A DNA stretch of 64,000 nt from an uncultured cyanobacterium (GTDB taxonomy: Bacteria > Cyanobacteriota > Cyanobacteriia > Cyanobacteriales > Cyanobacteriaceae): the NCBI GenBank assembly GCA_963710605.1, contig CAVQBA010000007.1, forward strand, positions 480,001 through 544,000, given 5' to 3'. Positions 1,385 to 21,577 of the stretch are shown in pieces. Numbering within the stretch: the first letter of the stretch is position 1; every line of letters starts with the position of its first letter. Below the pieces are notes generated by a model, which was not told where the DNA came from, ran no database searches, and saw only the letters and a program-made list of their open reading frames with translations. The position numbers were made by a program, and so were the translations under genes.

Positions 1385-1404
1385 ATCTCGAATAATGATT
1401 AATT

Positions 1405-1773
1405 ATGTTTACAACTGAACTACCAGCGATAAATTATGTAACACAAAACAGTATCATAGAAGAACAAAGAATAGAACCAGAAAAAATCATGATACTTAAC
1501 GATAGTCAAGTTAGACAACAATTATCAGATATTCCTGAATGGTTCACAAGTGGGCAATACCTTAGTCATACTTATCAGTTTAGCGACTTTAGACAAGCAA
1601 TAAAATTTATTAATTCTCTAGTTGAACCCTCAGAAGCGATCGGACACCATCCTGACATCAGTATTTCTTACAATAAAGTGACAATTCATTTAACAACTCA
1701 CGATGCAGGAGGAATTACCCAAAAAGATATTGATTTAGCTAAACAGATTACTAGAATAGTAAAAAACTTTTAA
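1405..1773 (+). CDS. Pterin-4-alpha-carbinolamine dehydratase (4a-hydroxytetrahydrobiopterin dehydratase)
   Basis: HHPDI...YNKV...LTTHDAGGITQKDIDLA signature; the true start may be a downstream Met. Confidence 0.85.
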   Translation: MFTTELPAINYVTQNSIIEEQRIEPEKIMILNDSQVRQQLSDIPEWFTSGQYLSHTYQFSDFRQAIKFINSLVEPSEAIGHHPDISISYNKVTIHLTTHDAGGITQKDIDLAKQITRIVKNF

Positions 1774-1970
1774 AAGCTAATTACTAATGTTAATCTAATT
1801 ATTTTTTGGCTCAAGTTGTCAGTCATAATCTACTTATATAGCATTCGTTCATTAAGTAAAAATAATTAATTATTAGTTGTTTAGGCTAAATAGTCTCAAC
1901 TTTTGAGAATTCTCTTAATTCAGGTAAAATGTAAACGGAAATAATAGCAGAAAGTACCCCCAAAATAAAT

Positions 1971-2312
1971 ATGATTGAAGTTAATAATCAGAAAAACTTA
2001 GAAGCAATGAAAAATTTTGCTGAACAGTATGCGAATAGAAGTGATACTTATTTTTGTGCCGACCCTTCAGTGACAGCCGTCGTCATTCAAGGTTTAGCAC
2101 GTCATAAAGAAGAATTAGGTGCTCCTCTTTGTCCTTGTCGTTATTACGAAGATAAAGAAGCTGAGGTTAAAGATACATTTTGGAATTGTCCTTGTGTACC
2201 TATGCGTGAGAGAAAAGAATGTCATTGTATGTTGTTTCTCACACCTGATAATGAATTTGTGGGTGAGCAACAAGAAATTAGTTGGGATGATTTACAAGGA
2301 GATGGTAAGTAA
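1971..2312 (+). CDS. ftrC: Ferredoxin-thioredoxin reductase catalytic subunit
   Basis: CPC...CPC...CHC Fe-S/disulfide motifs (PLCPCR, WNCPCVPMRERKECHCMLF). Confidence 0.95.
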   Translation: MIEVNNQKNLEAMKNFAEQYANRSDTYFCADPSVTAVVIQGLARHKEELGAPLCPCRYYEDKEAEVKDTFWNCPCVPMRERKECHCMLFLTPDNEFVGEQQEISWDDLQGDGK

Positions 2313-2352
2313 TTAATTGATAATTACGGTTGTATCGATCGCAATCTAACTT

Positions 2353-2394
2353 ACTCAAGGTTACAACACATTTTTAGTAATCATAACCTTGAGT
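2353..2394. terminator. Inverted repeat between the convergent ftrC and psbN genes
   Basis: ACTCAAGGTTA...TAACCTTGAGT 11-bp stem. Confidence 0.5.
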
Positions 2395-2450
2395 GTTTGC
2401 TTATTTAATTGGTTATAAAGACAGAAAAAATAATATTACCCGACGTCTTT

Positions 2451-2582
2451 TTAGTCTTCATGATCTTCAAAAGGATCACCTAGTTCGGCTGATGGTGGAC
2501 CAAAAGCAGTATAAATAGAGTATCCTGTAATAGCTACCAAAACTGTAGCTACGCTAATGCCAATAATTGTTGCACTTTCCAT
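2451..2582 (-). CDS. psbN: Photosystem II assembly protein PsbN (43 aa, absent from the ORF track)
   Basis: Manual translation [43 protein letters not shown]; divergent from psbH as usual. Confidence 0.95.
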
Positions 2583-7031: not shown

Positions 7032-7170
7032 TTTTACATCCTCCTTTATATAAGAAATGTTATTTTTATTACATTTGTTGAGTGATTATATAATTTTTTT
7101 ATCAGAAAGTCAATACCTAATCAGAATCTTTTTCAATAAACAAGCCAATTTACCGATAACGTGCGAACAG

Positions 7171-7265
7171 ATTAGGTTTTAGGGGTTAGGGATTAGGGAT
7201 TAGGGAATAGGGATTAGGGATTAGGGAATAGGGAATAGGGATTAGGGATTAGGGAATAGGGAATA
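7171..7265 (+). repeat. Heptamer tandem repeat (GGGATTA/GGGAATA)n, STRR type
   Basis: About 12 consecutive 7-nt units read directly. Confidence 0.9.
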
Positions 7266-7274
7266 AAAATAATT

Positions 7275-7405
7275 TACTTGTTACTTATTACTTATTACTC
7301 CTTACTTATTACTTCTTACTTCTTACTCTTTACTTCTTACTCCTTACTCCTTACTCTTTACTCATTACTCCTTACTCCTTACTTCTTACTTCTTACTCAT
7401 TACTT
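7275..7405 (+). repeat. Heptamer tandem repeat (TTACTCC/TTACTTC/TTACTTA)n
   Basis: Direct reading. Confidence 0.9.
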
Positions 7406-17155: not shown

Positions 17156-17186
17156 TCCCCCTTACAAAGGGGGATTTAGGGGGATT
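17156..17186. repeat. REP-like GC-rich palindrome (CCCCCTT..AAGGGGGATTTAGGGGGAT family)
   Basis: Related copies near 15257, 17994, 31800, 41081, 59454 and 61380. Confidence 0.75.
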
Positions 17187-17353
17187 AATCTGTATCTTAT
17201 GAAACTGAGAATTGCTATAACTAACAATTGATAATCTTCTTACCGAAAGTAAACCTATAAATGAAGGGTAGCTTGTCTGTAGTTTTTATCTCAAACATAT
17301 TAAAAAAAGGCATTAATGAATTAATTTTTCACTAATACCTTTTTTGTTGATTA

Positions 17354-17740
17354 TGGAGCTGAGCAGAGTTGAACTGCTGTCCAAACCAGCTATTTACTTA
17401 TCGATCGTTCACAGGTTTAGCCTATCTAATCCTCAGGCGGGAACTATCACTTATCCCTGACAGTGGGATTTTCTCGTATTATCTTAATTTAAAAACTGAC
17501 AAGAAGCAGTCGTTAAAAGCATCCGTTATTTATTGCCTATAGTACTTAACGGAGTCACACTATAAGCGCTCGAACCAATTTTTTAGGTCTTAGGCTGCTA
17601 CTGGAGCTGCTTTACGAGCAAAAGGAACTATGTTGTTCGCAGTTACAATTTTTTTGAATCTTTGATTAATGAGAGGAGATTCACTCTCAACCTGTATCAC
17701 GGGTCAGCTTTCACAAGCCTGTCGAAACCTTTACAGCCCC
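17354..17740 (-). ncRNA. ssrA: tmRNA
   Basis: 5' GGGGCTGTAAAGGTTTCGAC, 3' GTTCAACTCTGCTCAGCTCCA; tag ORF (A)NNIVPFARKAAPVAA* at 17590-17640. Confidence 0.97.
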
Positions 17741-17844
17741 TTGTTTTCCCTTTCGGTATTTACCATCATAACTTATAATTTATTAGTTGACAACCCCCAA
17801 TCATGAGTAAGGAGTAAGGAGTAACAAGTAATGAGTAAGAAGTT

Positions 17845-19356
17845 TTAATTGTCCATTGTCAATTGTCGATCGTTCACTGCTGGATGTGCCTCCAATACAA
17901 ACTCGATCGGCTGAAGCCGGCGCTGCGCGATCGTCGAAGTGGGCTGTGCCGTAAGGAGATTTGAGGGGAATTGCCCGTCGAGATAAGTAGAAGAATCCCC
18001 CCTAGCCCCCCTTTGTAAGGGGGGAACAAGATCGTGGTCGTGGTTGTCAGTATGAGGTATCAGGGTATGATAAGTGTCTGTTTTTGTATTTTGAATTGCA
18101 TTGAGTATTAAGACGTTGATATCGGAAGGAAGTTTACGGATACCAGGGGCTATATGGTTCTTTAATAAGTCATAGGGGTGAGCTTGTTGGTCTAAATGTG
18201 AACCATCGTCCGAGAGGAAGGCAGTAAAGTTATCACCGACAAAGGTACGTCTGCCATTTTGATAACGAACATTTTTATCGAATTCTGAATAACCGTTGAT
18301 GAAGCCATAAAGGTGGGCAGTTTCATGGAGGATGGTGGTAAGCAGATCGTATTTACCATAGGCTTCTGAGTCAGGAGTTGCCAAAAATGCGAACTCCGAA
18401 TTCCGAATTGCGAACTCCAAATTCTCCATAGGAGTAGCGTCGATAAACCAGCCAACACCGTTAGCATCGTGGTCAATGGAGACGATACCAGCATTGGGTT
18501 TACCCTCTGAGTCAAAACCTGTGATAGTGGCTTCTGCTAGTTGTCCAGAGGGAAGATCTTTTATTTCATAGGTGATGTCGATGTTGGTTTGAGGTAAAAG
18601 GGTTGACCAGATATGGTTTACGCTATTATTGAGTTGGTTAATAGTTTGGAGATTTGAATTATGGATATCACTGCTGAGGAGTTGCTCAGAAGGTATAATG
18701 CTGGAGAAAGGGATTTCACTAATATATGTTTGCGTAGAATCAATCTTATCGATGTTGATTTGAGTGAGATTAATTTGAGTGGTGCTAGATTGGATAATAC
18801 TTGTTTGACCAGAGTAAATCTCGACCGATCTATTTTTGTTAATGTCTTTTTGGAAACCACTTTCTTTGATGAAGTTAGTTTGGAGAGAGCTAATTTGAGC
18901 GGGGTCAATTTGTACGGTTCTAGAATGAGACGGGTTAATCTCAAAAGGAGTAACTTGGAAAATATTATCTGGTATGAATCTTGGCTGGAAGATGTCGATC
19001 TTCGAGAGTCCAATCTGCGTGGTGCTGACATGGGAGAGATTTATCTTGTTGATTGCAACTTTCTTGGAGCTAGGATGGAGGAAATATCCTTTCTGCCTAT
19101 GAGAGAGAGAGTTATCATGCCAGACGGAACTATCATAACTGATGATTGGATTTTTACTAGTTAAATTCTCACCATACTGTGCATTTGTTTCTATTATTGA
19201 AAAATCGGCTAGAAGGTTAGAAGTCAATGGGGAACAAGAGACATGATTTTCATCTTCAATGATATTTTGAATTTCTTTTGGAAGATGAGAAAAGAAATTG
19301 TTACTTGTTAATTCTTCTAAATAGAGCTCGCTTGTAGGGTGCGTTCTATTAAACCG
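17845..19356 (-). CDS. Fragment of a large secreted-type protein: antisense pentapeptide-like variable region followed by an HExxH metallopeptidase-like domain (probably truncated)
   Basis: Frame open from 19356 to 17845 (ORF track start is TTG at 19227); DLPSGQLAEATITGFD...IDHDANGVGWFIDATP...YDLLTTILHETAHLYG. Confidence 0.65.
   Translation of the reverse strand, partial: RFNRTHPTSELYLEELTSNNFFSHLPKEIQNIIEDENHVSCSPLTSNLLADFSIIETNAQYGENLTSKNPIISYDSSVWHDNSLSHRQKGYFLHPSSKKVAINKINLSHVSTTQIGLSKIDIFQPRFIPDNIFQVTPFEINPSHSRTVQIDPAQISSLQTNFIKESGFQKDINKNRSVEIYSGQTSIIQSSTTQINLTQINIDKIDSTQTYISEIPFSSIIPSEQLLSSDIHNSNLQTINQLNNSVNHIWSTLLPQTNIDITYEIKDLPSGQLAEATITGFDSEGKPNAGIVSIDHDANGVGWFIDATPMENLEFAIRNSEFAFLATPDSEAYGKYDLLTTILHETAHLYGFINGYSEFDKNVRYQNGRRTFVGDNFTAFLSDDGSHLDQQAHPYDLLKNHIAPGIRKLPSDINVLILNAIQNTKTDTYHTLIPHTDNHDHDLVPPLQRGARGDSSTYLDGQFPSNLLTAQPTSTIAQRRLQPIEFVLEAHPAVNDRQLTMDN
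17904..17933. repeat. 24-nt insertion flanked by duplicated CGATCG (same family as the folC copy)
   Basis: Reverse complement CGATCG-CGCAGCGCCGGCTTCAGC-CGATCG. Confidence 0.7.
18661..19164 (+). CDS. Pentapeptide-repeat protein, copy 1 (nested antisense in the ORF at 17845-19356)
   Basis: ITAEELLRRYNAGERDF N-cap, INLSGARLD/ANLSGVNLY/SNLRGADM repeats, IMPDGTI C-terminal motif. Confidence 0.88.
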   Translation: MDITAEELLRRYNAGERDFTNICLRRINLIDVDLSEINLSGARLDNTCLTRVNLDRSIFVNVFLETTFFDEVSLERANLSGVNLYGSRMRRVNLKRSNLENIIWYESWLEDVDLRESNLRGADMGEIYLVDCNFLGARMEEISFLPMRERVIMPDGTIITDDWIFTS

Positions 19357-19527
19357 TTACATATTTAAGACCATCCCATATAATATAGAACGCACCACCC
19401 TTATTTATTCATTAACGATTTTTTGAGGTATTTGTGGTATGTTATTTAATTCCCAATCAGACGGATAAATTCCTCGAGCAATAAAGCACTAAGATATACG
19501 ATACATAAAATAAAAGCGAAACCCAAC
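19328..19527. repeat. About 200-bp direct repeat B (second copy 20290-20506) containing a REP-type GTAGGGTGCGTT...AACGCACC element
   Basis: Near-identical over the first ~130 bp and again over the final ACGATACATAAAAT.AAAGCGAAACCCAAC. Confidence 0.85.
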
Positions 19528-20307
19528 TGTATTGGTTATGGAGTATTCATTATTATCTAATGGTGTATCGTCGATAAACCAGCCGACACCGTTAGCATTG
19601 TGGTCAATGGAGACTATACCTGCGTTAGGTTTACCGAAAGAGTCAAACCCTGTGATAGTTGCTTCTGCTAGTTGTCTTGTTGGTAAGTCTTTTATTTCAT
19701 AGGTGATGTCAATGTCGGTTTGAGGTAAGAGGGTTGACCAGATATTGTTTACGCTATTATTTAGTTGGTTAAGTGTTTAGATCTTTTTTGAATTATGCCA
19801 AAAAGAAGGAAAATTACTGCTGATGAATTGATTCGACAATATAATAGGGGGAACAGAGATTTCCGTCGGATTCGTATATGGGATTGGAGAAATGATGTTT
19901 TCAATGGTGTCGATCTTAGGGGTATTAATCTTGAAGATACTTTTATCGATATCAATCTAAGTGGTGCTATTTTGAGAAATGCTAATTTCAAAAATTCTAT
20001 CTGGGTTAGTGGAGACTGGCAAAATATTGATTTTACTGATTCCAATATGATCGGTGTTTCCAATGTGGATAGTTTCATCTTTACCCGTTGCGATTTTAGT
20101 GGAACTGTTTGGAGTAACGTCAAATTTTTTCAGTCTACTTTCGTTGACTGCAATTTGAGCTTCACTGATTTTGATAACGCCAGTCTTGTCGAAGTTGATC
20201 TTTACGGTTGAATTGTTTGTATTAATTAATGTAATATTATTTGCTTGAGATAATTTTAATGGTTGAGCTAATATATTAGTGCGATCGTATCGCTTGTAGG
20301 GTGCGTT
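19528..20307 (-). pseudogene. Second, decayed copy of the metallopeptidase-associated host ORF
   Basis: IWSTLLPQTDIDITYEIKDLPTRQLAEATITGFDSFGKPNAGIVSIDHNANGVGWFIDDTP is nearly identical to copy 1; in-frame stops at 19777-19779 and 19957-19959; truncated before HExxH. Confidence 0.8.
19795..20211 (+). CDS. Pentapeptide-repeat protein, copy 2 (divergent)
   Basis: ITADELIRQYNRGNRDF N-cap; VDLRGINLE/INLSGAILRNANFK repeats. Confidence 0.85.
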   Translation: MPKRRKITADELIRQYNRGNRDFRRIRIWDWRNDVFNGVDLRGINLEDTFIDINLSGAILRNANFKNSIWVSGDWQNIDFTDSNMIGVSNVDSFIFTRCDFSGTVWSNVKFFQSTFVDCNLSFTDFDNASLVEVDLYG

Positions 20308-20506
20308 CTATTAAACCGTTACATATTTAAGACCATCCCATATCATATAAAACGCACCACCCTTATTTATTAACTAACGATTTCTTGAGGTATTTGTGGT
20401 ATGTTATCTAATCCCCAATTAGTGAGATAGAAGATATTGTAGGGAACGGTTAAGCCTCGCAAAGATTAATATACACACGATACATAAAATGAAAGCGAAA
20501 CCCAAC
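20290..20506. repeat. Direct repeat B, second copy
   Basis: Aligns by eye with 19328-19527. Confidence 0.85.
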
Positions 20507-20551
20507 AACCGACTATCTACTAGCTCGTAATGAGAATCGGGAATATAACGA

Positions 20552-21577
20552 TTAATTCTCTGTCGTCCATCGATCGAGAATATCATTAAAAAGTACTTCT
20601 TCAACTATTGTTTTAAAAACTACTGTCAACGGAAGTGCCAACAGCAAACCAAGTAAGCCAAAGGTACTCGCAAAAAAGATTTGGGCAAAAAGAGTAACCG
20701 CTGGTAATAAAGACACTTTTTCTTCCATTACTCTAGGTGTTAACCAATAACTTTCGATATTTTGAATAATAAAGTATAAGACAAAAATAGGTAGTATTTT
20801 CCAAGGATAATCAACTATCGCAATCATAATCGGGAAAACAATGCTGAGTGTCGGACCAATATTAGGGATAAAATTTAATAATCCTGCTAAAAGTGCATGA
20901 ACTAAAACAAACTTTACTTGTAATGCGAACAAACCGACACCGCTTAATAAACCAATGAAGAGCGAATTAATTACTGTTCCATTAAACCAACTAACGATCG
21001 CAATTTCACTTTTATCTAATATATTATCAATTCGATACCGATAAAAAGCAGGAAATAATTGTCGAAAATAATGACGATATTTCTGAGGATTAAGTAAAAA
21101 CATAATACTCAAAATTAAAATAAATATTCCTTGAAAAAGGATCACTAATACATTAGAAAAAAAAGTAATAAAATTATTCAATAAATTATCAGGAATAAAA
21201 TTATAATCTTCGATCGAAATATCTAATTCTTGGATGAATTTAAAATATTTATATCGATCGTAATCAAAGTTATTAATTAAATAATTTATTCTTTCAGGAA
21301 AATTTTGAAAAACATTTAATAATAATTGAAACTGTTCAATAAATGGAGGTAAAATAACTAAAAATAGTAAATTAAAAATAATAGTTATAAGAATGATGAT
21401 GATGACAATCGCAGTAGAACGAGTTAAATAAAATTGATTTAGTTTTATAACAAGACGGTTAAGAGCTACAGCTATAATAATAGCCAAGAAAATTAACAAC
21501 AAAAGTTGACGTATTTCCCATAAAATATAAAGAGAAATTAAAAAACTAAGAAATCCTAAAGATTGACCAAAATTCAT
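20552..21577 (-). CDS. AI-2E (PerM) family transporter
   Basis: Multi-TM; LAGLLNFIPNIGP, IQNIESYWLTPRVM, GLLGLLLALPL. Confidence 0.9.
   Translation of the reverse strand: MNFGQSLGFLSFLISLYILWEIRQLLLLIFLAIIIAVALNRLVIKLNQFYLTRSTAIVIIIILITIIFNLLFLVILPPFIEQFQLLLNVFQNFPERINYLINNFDYDRYKYFKFIQELDISIEDYNFIPDNLLNNFITFFSNVLVILFQGIFILILSIMFLLNPQKYRHYFRQLFPAFYRYRIDNILDKSEIAIVSWFNGTVINSLFIGLLSGVGLFALQVKFVLVHALLAGLLNFIPNIGPTLSIVFPIMIAIVDYPWKILPIFVLYFIIQNIESYWLTPRVMEEKVSLLPAVTLFAQIFFASTFGLLGLLLALPLTVVFKTIVEEVLFNDILDRWTTEN

Follow-up and report, generated by a model that had tools for sequence, protein, structure and literature searches.

In pore-forming colicin operons, toxin and immunity genes are on opposite strands, with the immunity gene downstream, and transcription of the toxin runs antisense through the immunity gene. 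In Anabaena-type cyanobacteria, the gene of NucA, a secreted nuclease without sugar specificity (Endonuclease_NS, PF01223), is followed immediately, on the opposite strand, by the small gene of its protein inhibitor, NuiA (PF07924). The locus described here lies in a 64,000-nucleotide (nt) stretch of the genome of an uncultured cyanobacterium of the family Cyanobacteriaceae (GenBank assembly GCA_963710605.1, contig CAVQBA010000007.1, positions 480,001 to 544,000; the whole stretch is hereafter called the window), in which PRP1, a complete gene for a pentapeptide-repeat protein (PRP), sits antisense and in register within a minus-strand open reading frame (ORF) that leads into a domain with an HExxH motif. 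An initial annotation, made from the sequence alone, had proposed that both strands of this segment are under coding selection. We consider it likely that PRP1 is a genuine, foldable protein of a PRP subfamily that is the regular partner of NucA-type domains in large exoproteins, sometimes nested within their genes, and that the window holds a remnant of such a module. The loci compared below share with NucA/NuiA the small opposite-strand gene immediately downstream of an Endonuclease_NS nuclease, but here the partner is a PRP, whose inhibition of the nuclease is putative, the nuclease is contained as one domain in a very large protein, and in a third of the PRP-bearing cases the large gene reads through the antisense strand of its partner. 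They differ from the colicin operons, where only transcription crosses the immunity gene, in that translation of the large protein would do so as well.

Polymorphic toxin systems with Tox-NucA, as set out in the available portion of the survey by Zhang et al. (2012; PMC3482391), are likewise large exported multidomain proteins with a NucA-clade domain, a small neighbor gene, peptidase domains for processing, and orphan partner genes in arrays. The Tox-NucA partners named in that portion are Imm36, Imm-SUKH, and Imm-NTF2, with only same-strand genes counted as operons; cyanobacteria are not listed there in the spread of Tox-NucA, and the term “pentapeptide repeat” is absent from it. Here, by contrast, the partner is on the opposite strand and the nuclease domain of the nested layout is internal rather than C-terminal; we claim no role in inter-bacterial conflict.

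Antisense dual coding in bacteria is contested, most claimed cases being single-locus. According to the accessible part of its description, pop, antisense to ompA in Escherichia coli O157:H7 (PMC7103648), is a complete ORF embedded antisense in a coding gene, as PRP1 is, and has expression evidence, whereas the pair described here is known from sequence alone. It differs further from pop/ompA in that the nested gene comes from a large, structurally known family, the pair is found again in other genera, a codon signature has been quantified in each frame, and the host-frame segment is a predicted disordered linker. The DNA-mimic PRPs MfpA and Qnr, in the excerpts available (PMC7980463 and PMC3089455), are right-handed quadrilateral beta-helices with an acidic surface that occupy a DNA-binding enzyme; their target is DNA gyrase, while a nuclease target is a proposal made here. 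Sections of a 2021 review call the biochemical functions of cyanobacterial PRPs almost completely unknown (PMC8145042). In partial texts of two further sources, PRP genes are frequent neighbors of GH-E His-Me nuclease toxins without an annotated immunity gene (PMC5714182), and an antitoxin of a type VII secretion system is annotated as a PRP (bioRxiv 10.64898/2026.07.13.738213). Our literature search, outside which lay the supplements of PMC3482391 and PMC5714182, found no account of PRP genes that lie within other, giant genes or are partnered with NucA-type nucleases. The finding combines known kinds, antisense nested genes and nuclease-inhibitor pairs.

RESULTS

Codon choice in PRP1 and its relatives

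The plus-strand gene is the canonical pentapeptide gene that the initial annotation took it to be, with Pfam matches to PF00805 (in three stretches; Table 1), PF13599 (E value, 1.5e-12), and PF13576 (4.7e-8). Members of the PRP family have, by its profile, no fewer than some eight consecutive A(D/N)LXX-type pentapeptides, and PRP1 is one of them: an N-terminal cap helix (AEELLRRYNAGERDF) is followed by the repeats and by a C-terminal IMPDGT motif. Its AlphaFold2 model (mean predicted local distance difference test [pLDDT], 92.4; predicted template modeling score, 0.86) places a helix at residues 5 to 13 and then short strands every ~5 residues, a predicted right-handed quadrilateral beta-helix. 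The minus frame shares codon boundaries with PRP1 (18661 - 17845 = 816 = 3 x 272) and is open for about 1.5 kb into the HExxH motif, again as first described.

In-register antisense stops stem solely from the PRP codons TTA, CTA, and TCA. In the long ORFs of this genome (670,082 codons; GC content of the genome, ~33%), TTA accounts for 58% and CTA for 9% of Leu codons and TCA for 18% of Ser codons. An exact count of PRP1 agrees with the initial tally of about 21 Leu codons that include no TTA or CTA and a gene free of TCA: 21 Leu codons (11 TTG, 4 CTT, 3 CTC, and 3 CTG) and 11 Ser codons hold none of the three. The probability of finding none is 6e-12 under genome usage and 9e-10 under that of the 35 other PRP ORFs in the genome.

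These other ORFs come from a jackhmmer search over all ORFs of at least 60 amino acids (aa) in this genome, which yielded 51 PRP ORFs. At the start codon, 16 of the 51 adjoin the first 30 to 50 codons of minus-strand sequence for the HExxH domain, and the genome has 18 sites at which this sequence starts, 16 of them with such a gene alongside. Each of the 16 adjacency-defined genes contains zero or one TTA, CTA, or TCA codon, against 5 to 24 expected; pooled, they use TTA or CTA for 6 of 256 Leu codons and TCA for none of 194 Ser codons. The other 35 show no avoidance and use these codons freely (TTA, 645, and CTA, 85, for a total of 730 of 1,215 Leu codons, TTA being 53%; TCA, 79 of 616 Ser codons). 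Since about eight family-like genes with shorter flank remnants are still contained in this comparison group, the contrast is conservative. Background ORFs have 8.5 in-register antisense stops per 100 codons and ordinary PRPs (n = 26) have 10.7, as opposed to 0.23 in the family PRPs (n = 20), the last set being the 16 defined by adjacency plus 4 added because of the codon feature itself.

The signature also extends to sense codons. Those that read as Tyr, Cys, or Trp on the other strand are scarce in family PRPs relative to the background and to ordinary PRPs, respectively (ATA, 0.08 versus 0.19 and 0.25; GTA, 0.04 versus 0.30 and 0.24; ACA, 0.04 versus 0.29 and 0.28; GCA, 0.03 versus 0.27 and 0.20); CCA stands at 0.16, and elsewhere codons of this kind range from 0.16 to 0.30. 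Antisense-Ser/Pro codons (GGA, AGA, AGG, and GGG) are enriched, and antisense-Phe or Leu-TTG codons are unchanged. The depletion of Tyr/Cys/Trp-making codons argues that the make-up of the minus-frame product, beyond the absence of stops, has been selected.

An open antisense frame might also be due to chance, be a by-product of PRP composition, or reflect a foreign (GC-rich) origin, and a second antisense frame, one base off the in-register frame, is indeed open over PRP1 for 137 codons (18618-19031, minus strand) and is relatively stop-poor in PRPs generally (4.7 stops per 100 codons in ordinary and 2.5 in family PRPs). The in-register frame behaves otherwise, ordinary PRPs having 10.7 stops per 100 codons in it against 0.23 in the family, and the probabilities for PRP1 (6e-12 to 9e-10) and the recurrence of the arrangement in other genera also speak against this explanation. 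Two-fold codons in family PRPs stay as AT-rich as the genome (AAT, 0.78; GAT, 0.80; AAA, 0.84); thus, a foreign origin does not account for the pattern. We give chance, composition, and foreign origin virtually no credence, as they are contradicted by the controls with ordinary PRPs, genome usage, and the convergent PRPs described below.

Nested PRP genes in other cyanobacterial genomes

The HExxH domain is patchily distributed: it occurs in 3 of 41 genomes of relatives, with two weak matches outside this genome and, thus, no close orthologs of the window locus, and, across the phylum, in 11 of 401 genomes (E value, ≤1e-10; this genome included). The open frames that hold the close matches have 8,564, 4,970, and 10,437 codons, and some are shorter. 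At all seven close loci (L022 to L026, L033, and L034, from five other genomes with a GC content of 43 to 48%), a complete PRP ORF, with Met, N-terminal cap, repeats, a T(I/T)MP(D/S)G motif, and a stop, lies antisense and in register over the in-frame stretch just upstream of the domain, and the large frame reads through it; elsewhere, the antisense frame abounds in stops. No antisense PRP is present at four distant matches to the domain, which have other domains upstream. Among complete nested PRP loci, an ATG stands just before the N-terminal cap in 8 of 9.

Both frames of the nested segments are more open than codon usage predicts. In four such segments from three giant genes, set against each giant gene's own codon usage (with segment limits off by 1 to 18 codons at one end), stop-making codons number zero in the PRP frame where 4.7 to 10.8 are expected (probability of none, 4e-3 to 2.5e-6) and zero in the giant frame where 9.4 to 15.8 are expected (3.5e-6 to 2.5e-10). 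One of the giant frames (in genome G132) encodes CARDB, He_PIG, Big_9, cadherin, dockerin, RHS repeat, and PKD domains along with two Endonuclease_NS domains and two nested antisense PRPs. Of these domains, CARDB, PKD, cadherin, He_PIG, and dockerin are of an extracellular type. The 8,564 open codons of this frame fill the contig (C83:1-25695, comprising loci L042 and L043) and are cut at both ends.

In genomes of the same genus as G132 (L105, L106, L109, L110, and L112; genomes G500 and G488), the first part of the HExxH domain is matched in 8 and 4 places at 72 to 80% nucleotide identity. The PRP part has no DNA match in five genomes of this genus and is hypervariable beside a conserved flank.

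Association of the PRP genes with nuclease domains

The two Endonuclease_NS domains of the G132 giant gene (residues 2979-3208 and ~7067-7387; PF01223, E values of 2.7e-37 and 8.8e-29) each have a nested PRP within a few tens of codons, and the HExxH query matches this gene once, after the second nuclease domain only. Because a PRP follows both nuclease domains and the HExxH domain follows one, the PRP goes with the nuclease. This link, unseen in the initial annotation, probably accounts for the pairing of the PRP with the large gene.

A PF01223 scan of 251 genomes of the order separated stand-alone nucleases (open frames of ~260 to 450 aa) from domains in long frames (≥600 aa). Of the 40 long-frame domains listed, two were already known; the remaining 38 were taken with 1.5 kb of downstream sequence, and 37 were analyzed, L051 being dropped because it gave no tblastn match. 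An antisense PRP-like frame lies just downstream in 31 of the 37 (E values of 1e-21 to 1e-98 with this genome's PRP profile). In 20 of these loci, the layout is convergent: the long ORF stops 3 to 60 codons past the nuclease domain and the PRP is not read through. Another 10 have the read-through layout, and one (L067) is unclear. The frame relation differs between the layouts, with 4 of the convergent loci in register and 16 in another frame, as opposed to 10 of 10 read-through loci in register; joined with the seven close HExxH loci, all 17 read-through cases use the in-register frame. Convergent PRPs use TTA, CTA, and TCA freely (226 in 4,892 codons, with at least one in each of the 20). 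Codons making Tyr, Cys, or Trp on the other strand, a comparison free of circularity, occur at 1.08 per 100 in nested and 4.39 per 100 in non-nested PRPs of other genomes.

Stand-alone nucleases served as a control. A PRP lies downstream of none of 20 such genes, and a convergent NuiA-like gene is found at 10 of the 20, a lower bound given that the search was by single-sequence phmmer; a search of the same kind found NuiA-like genes at none of 38 long-ORF nuclease loci. In the genome under study, NucA (PF01223, E value of 1.2e-58) and NuiA (PF07924, 4.6e-29) are convergent with a 4-nt 3' overlap. At that locus (L046, C5:274686-278291), NucA occupies local positions 1390-2151 (plus strand) and has a lipoprotein-like N-terminus, and NuiA occupies 2148-2504 (minus strand). 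With PRPs beside long-ORF nucleases and NuiA beside stand-alone ones, the PRP fills the place of a known nuclease inhibitor.

Residues R107, G108, H109, and N131 are invariant in five aligned nuclease domains, the RGH and Asn catalytic positions being kept; these conserved residues and the Pfam matches suggest that the domains are catalytically competent. A complex prediction for the nuclease domain of G330 and its nested PRP returned 0.00 and 0.00 from alignments of 5 and 6 rows and weighs neither way. In the window itself, adjacency to a nuclease is reduced to ~34 residues of the domain.

Constraint on the two frames

The closest pair of paralogs in this genome (C6_565282 and C6_566065) has the same truncation junction in both copies and was, therefore, duplicated after truncation. 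The two differ at 14, 15, and 38 nt in PRP codon positions 1, 2, and 3, respectively, and are 82% identical as proteins in the PRP frame and 71% in the minus frame; 22 single changes are silent only in the PRP frame and 4 only in the minus frame. Of 167 codons, 22 differ synonymously and 30 with a change of amino acid; the ratio of nonsynonymous to synonymous rates is roughly 0.5, and, read from these differences, the pair shows purifying selection on the PRP, though not strong selection. In the flank upstream of the PRP start, variation falls mostly at minus-frame third positions (top-base fraction, 0.70 versus 0.82 and 0.82).

It is very improbable, in our estimation, that only the minus strand codes and that the PRP-like ORF, as the mirror of a linker with a five-residue period, yields no protein. 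A constraint to xSQIx in one frame does automatically maintain (D/N)L(T/A/R/G) in the other, and outer codon positions vary equally in diverged pairs, both of which favor a coding minus strand alone; however, the same PRP subfamily stands free, convergent and not read through, in 20 loci. Nested copies, moreover, keep the features of a gene (the ATG before the N-terminal cap in 8 of 9 complete loci, the C-terminal MPDG motif, and the stop), and their PRP frame is open where giant-frame usage predicts 4.7 to 10.8 stops. PRP1 is modeled at a pLDDT of 92 against a disordered minus product, and the close pair changes most at PRP third positions.

The minus-strand product

Read from a TTG at 19227 to the stop at 17845, the minus ORF encodes 460 aa. 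It has 163 homologs at an E value of ≤1e-3 among proteins of 253 to 805 aa, many of which span 70 to 83% of the query and, hence, reach into the antisense-PRP part. Several carry cadherin, immunoglobulin-like (Ig), or PKD domains, and Endonuclease_NS (PF01223) is found in 14 of the 120 listed. We inspected 14 homolog sequences, from sources that include Leptolyngbya, Crocosphaera, Xenococcus, Chamaesiphon, Cronbergia, and Nostoc; read by eye, 12 of them show xSQIx-type five-residue repeats or a repeat end, then K(V/I)SFSSxIxSxQFxSSH, to which the PRP N-cap ELLxxYxxGERDF is antisense, and then the conserved HExxH domain. One of the other two (P0046) has no repeat part at all.

In an AlphaFold2 model of the 460-aa ORF built with 51 homologs, residues 10 to 190, which correspond to the antisense-PRP part, have a pLDDT of 23 to 38, and the HExxH domain (residues 190 to 382) has a pLDDT of 85 to 96. 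The initial annotation held that one DNA stretch specifies two different repeat proteins and cited the five-residue periodicity of the antisense product. The periodicity is real, but reading a pentapeptide gene in register and in reverse yields it automatically; hence, it is a mirror effect and no independent evidence. The notion of a second repeat protein gives way to that of a predicted disordered linker.

Conserved in ≥90% of the 51 homologs are His189, which is the antisense of the PRP ATG, and H301, E302, and H305 of the HETAH motif. The third-ligand region reads HExxHxxGxx(N/D/E), with N in the window copy and D, N, or E in homologs. Foldseek places leishmanolysin (1lml) first for the model of the domain (E value, 3e-3; probability, 1.00; 194 columns), followed by MMP-11 (6e-2) and by karilysin and MMP-12 (above 1), none reaching an E value of ≤1e-3; a Pfam search matched the domain to no family. 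We regard the modeled domain as metzincin-like and claim no family membership for it.

The copy in the window and its surroundings

The features of the locus are collected in Table 1.

Table 1. Elements of the PRP1 locus and its tandem duplicate, with positions in the window
Feature	Position	Strand	Basis
PRP1, pentapeptide-repeat protein gene, complete, 167 aa	18661-19164	+	Pfam Pentapeptide PF00805, E 3e-23
Minus ORF, truncated remnant of large multidomain exoprotein gene	17845-19356, stop to stop, 503 codons	-	ORF calling, homologs
Linker segment, in-register antisense of PRP1, Ser/Thr/Ile/Gln-rich, Tyr/Cys/Trp-poor, predicted disordered	18661-19164	-	pLDDT 23-38, composition
Metzincin-like HExxH domain, residues 190-382 of 460-aa ORF	18082-18660	-	pLDDT 85-96, Foldseek
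HETAH motif	18313-18327	-	Residues 301-305 of 460-aa ORF
Candidate PRP1 expression signals within minus-strand coding sequence	18603-18651	+	Copy comparison
Remnant of last ~34 residues of Endonuclease_NS (NucA-type) domain (..NNFFSHLPKEIQNIIED..)	19228-19329	-	Resemblance by eye, unscored
Dispersed repeat with hairpin, bounding minus frame upstream	19328-19527		Repeat comparison, blastn
Small G/C palindromic element, in-frame insert in minus ORF (reads ..PPLQRGARGD..)	17989-18023		Homolog comparison
Truncated second copy of first ~78 HExxH-domain codons (tandem duplicate)	19552-19786	-	85% nt identity to 18421-18655
PRP2, second family PRP gene of tandem duplicate, 138 aa	19795-20211	+	PF13599, E 1e-15; PF00805, E 1.8e-14

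By these sequence comparisons, the window is one of about 16 to 20 module remnants in the genome, with the PRP gene intact and the large gene fragmentary. Most of the 16 copies are truncated alike and keep 30 to 50 codons of the HExxH domain. What is left of the nuclease domain in the window resembles, by eye, the end of that domain in the giant genes and in P0009. In this genome, whose assembly is 85% complete, the stand-alone NucA was found, but no embedded nuclease domain. The initial annotation had also envisaged a large, probably exported protein, which fits the family, with its giant exoprotein genes, but not the window copy, which is a fragment.

The ~200-nt dispersed repeat that bounds the minus frame upstream has a hairpin (GGGTGCGTTCTAT...ATAGAACGCACC) and a second copy at 20290-20506 (identity between copies: D2, 92%; D3, 97%). 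It gives 22 blastn matches in the genome, 3 of them ≥150 nt, and its translations flank many family copies on either side; it may have been an agent of their truncation or duplication. The palindromic element (CCCCCC...GGGGGG) has an inverted partner at 17157-17191 and 15 matches in the genome. A 788-aa paralog on C6 (P0002) carries the same in-frame insert, and homologs in other species have similar inserts after the HExxH domain. Beyond the insert, the window copy is without ~190 codons found in P0002, and matching sequence resumes in another frame. Between the TTG at 19227 and a Met inside the HExxH domain, there is no ATG, GTG, or TTG.

Candidate expression signals of PRP1 comprise TTGACC (18603-18608), a 15-nt spacer, TATTAT (18624-18629), and GGAG (18648-18651), the last 9 nt before the ATG. 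They are kept in most of 15 family copies, and a look-alike, T(A/T)GAC(C/G)-N15-TAT(C/T)(T/A)T, occurs in L022, L024, and L033. Signals so placed would sit within the DNA for the first helix of the HExxH domain. In a consensus promoter and terminator scan of 17600-20600, promoter-like sites numbered 9, with 9.6 expected, and none of them precedes PRP1, the 15-nt spacer being the reason that it is blank at the candidate.

PRP2 contains one CTA codon and, hence, one stop in its in-register antisense frame. Over this gene as well, the antisense frame one base off is open, for 120 codons (19761-20123, minus strand). Heptanucleotide-like tandem units (gagtaag/gagtaac/aagtaat) occupy 17790-17845, directly after the minus ORF stop. 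Elsewhere in the genome, a paralog at C7:75043-76257 has an intact HExxH domain (83% identity) in a 330-codon open frame, and the PRP beside it is broken, being a 70-aa ORF 325 nt off, the reverse of the usual decay.

The state of the window copy leaves two other accounts of its minus frame to be weighed. One is that only the PRP gene is alive, the minus ORF being a dead fragment of a giant gene whose openness and codon signature were inherited and are decaying; we take this seriously and put it a little short of an even chance. It is consistent with a nuclease domain cut by the repeat, a broken 3' part, and no good start codon, with the 30 to 50 HExxH codons to which most of the 16 copies are reduced (5 of the 16 having one antisense stop), and with a genome, 85% complete in assembly, that has a stand-alone NucA and no embedded nuclease domain. 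A dead fragment is harder to reconcile with 503 stop-free codons at 33% GC, where TTG to TTA is the favored silent change, or with an intact HExxH domain at a pLDDT of 85 to 96; furthermore, 11 of the 16 copies are still fully open at ~30 to 50% identity as proteins, and the pair duplicated after truncation is open in both members.

The other account, which we hold to be unlikely, makes the truncated copies silent cassettes, with recombination in their flanks swapping hypervariable modules of PRP and linker (formerly with nuclease) into expressed genes, as in polymorphic toxin or antigenic-variation systems. Such exchange would keep both frames open in unexpressed copies, and the copies are flanked by the first ~150 nt of the HExxH domain and by the dispersed repeat. 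The conserved flank is 70 to 90% identical beside PRP parts that are 30 to 50% identical, tandem arrays of copies occur, and G500 and G488 match only the flank at the DNA level (8 and 4 places, 72 to 80%). Yet no recombination event or mosaic segment was seen, though no search was made for one, no intact nuclease-bearing expression locus was found in this genome, and third positions of the minus frame account for most of the variation in the flank, which is the pattern of ordinary coding sequence.

DISCUSSION

Our preferred account, in which the PRP subfamily is the regular partner of NucA-type domains, implies the following history. The ancestral state would be a large protein ending in a nuclease domain together with a convergent PRP gene, and the basic layout is convergent, the large gene ending just past the nuclease domain and the PRP gene facing it. 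At some loci, the large gene reads on through the PRP gene on the opposite strand with shared codon boundaries, and it would use the in-register frame because only there can every antisense stop be removed by a silent change in the PRP. The PRP stretch read backward would then become a disordered Ser/Thr/Ile/Gln-rich linker from the nuclease domain to HExxH, Ig, cadherin, and PKD domains, and the other strand would constrain PRP codon choice, with no TTA, CTA, or TCA and few antisense-Tyr/Cys/Trp codons. The sequences compared support well that both frames are kept open by selection across the family. The original proposal of coding selection on both strands, thus, holds for the family, through its stop-codon avoidance and Tyr/Cys/Trp depletion, and may no longer hold for the minus frame of the window, a truncated remnant.

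As for function, we propose that the PRP inhibits the nuclease domain, on the grounds of its NuiA-equivalent position, its place after both nuclease domains of the G132 gene, its acidity, and the parallels in the literature. It would act as an acidic DNA-mimic inhibitor that protects the producing cell, as an immunity protein, against the nuclease domain; the nuclease-less remnants would be orphan genes of the immunity type. More tentatively, and with rather less confidence than doubt, we suggest that the subfamily as a whole consists of DNA-mimic immunity proteins, the antidote lying, in many lineages, antisense within the toxin gene, and that the 16 to 20 copies in this genome would then form an orphan repertoire, possibly exchangeable by way of the conserved flanks.

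Several observations weigh against the preferred account. At 6 of the 37 long-ORF nuclease loci there is no PRP, although one of these (L056) may be a miss of the 1.5-kb limit. Read-through PRPs contain no TTA, CTA, or TCA in 1,575 codons, but this count is circular because the layout is defined by an open giant frame. Antisense stop-free runs of 80 to 276 codons also occur elsewhere in giant genes (Calx/PKD repeats; GC content, ~45%), so openness alone is unexceptional there, even if only the PRP runs give a recognizable protein. Family PRPs are acidic (median isoelectric point, 4.4 to 4.7), a property that is only mildly distinctive given a median of 5.18 in other PRPs. The candidate PRP1 promoter, with its atypical spacer, is a guess.

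Selection on individual copies is likewise equivocal. One antisense stop is present in 5 of the 16 family copies, the other 11 being fully open. The minus ORF of the window has no nuclease domain, convincing start, or ribosome-binding site and is broken in its 3' part, and its openness may be inherited rather than currently selected. The 10 TTG codons unchanged in the close, post-truncation pair (P of ~0.16) have no power to reveal selection on the minus frame. When 40 diverged paralog pairs are aligned by PRP protein, conservation is 0.446 in the PRP frame versus 0.334 in the minus frame; when they are aligned by the minus frame, the values are 0.382 and 0.357, the PRP value is higher in 24 of the 40, and outer codon positions stand at 2971 versus 2940. 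Pooled codon positions of these pairs were dropped as evidence of selection on the PRP, since the reciprocal alignment exposed an alignment bias. Among paralog pairs, only the close one is unambiguous.

For the study of antisense coding, a genome of 33% GC in which TTA makes up 58% of Leu codons is a strong internal control, and the same arrangement is found in other genera. The in-register rule singles out the one antisense frame whose stops all vanish by silent changes in the nested gene. Gene callers predict one gene per such locus, and nested PRPs or giant genes are, therefore, likely under-annotated. The placement of the PRP where NuiA sits suggests a testable function for this PRP subfamily, that of nuclease inhibitor. 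If this is true, one stretch of DNA would be translated both ways, as a folded inhibitor in one direction and as a disordered linker in the other.

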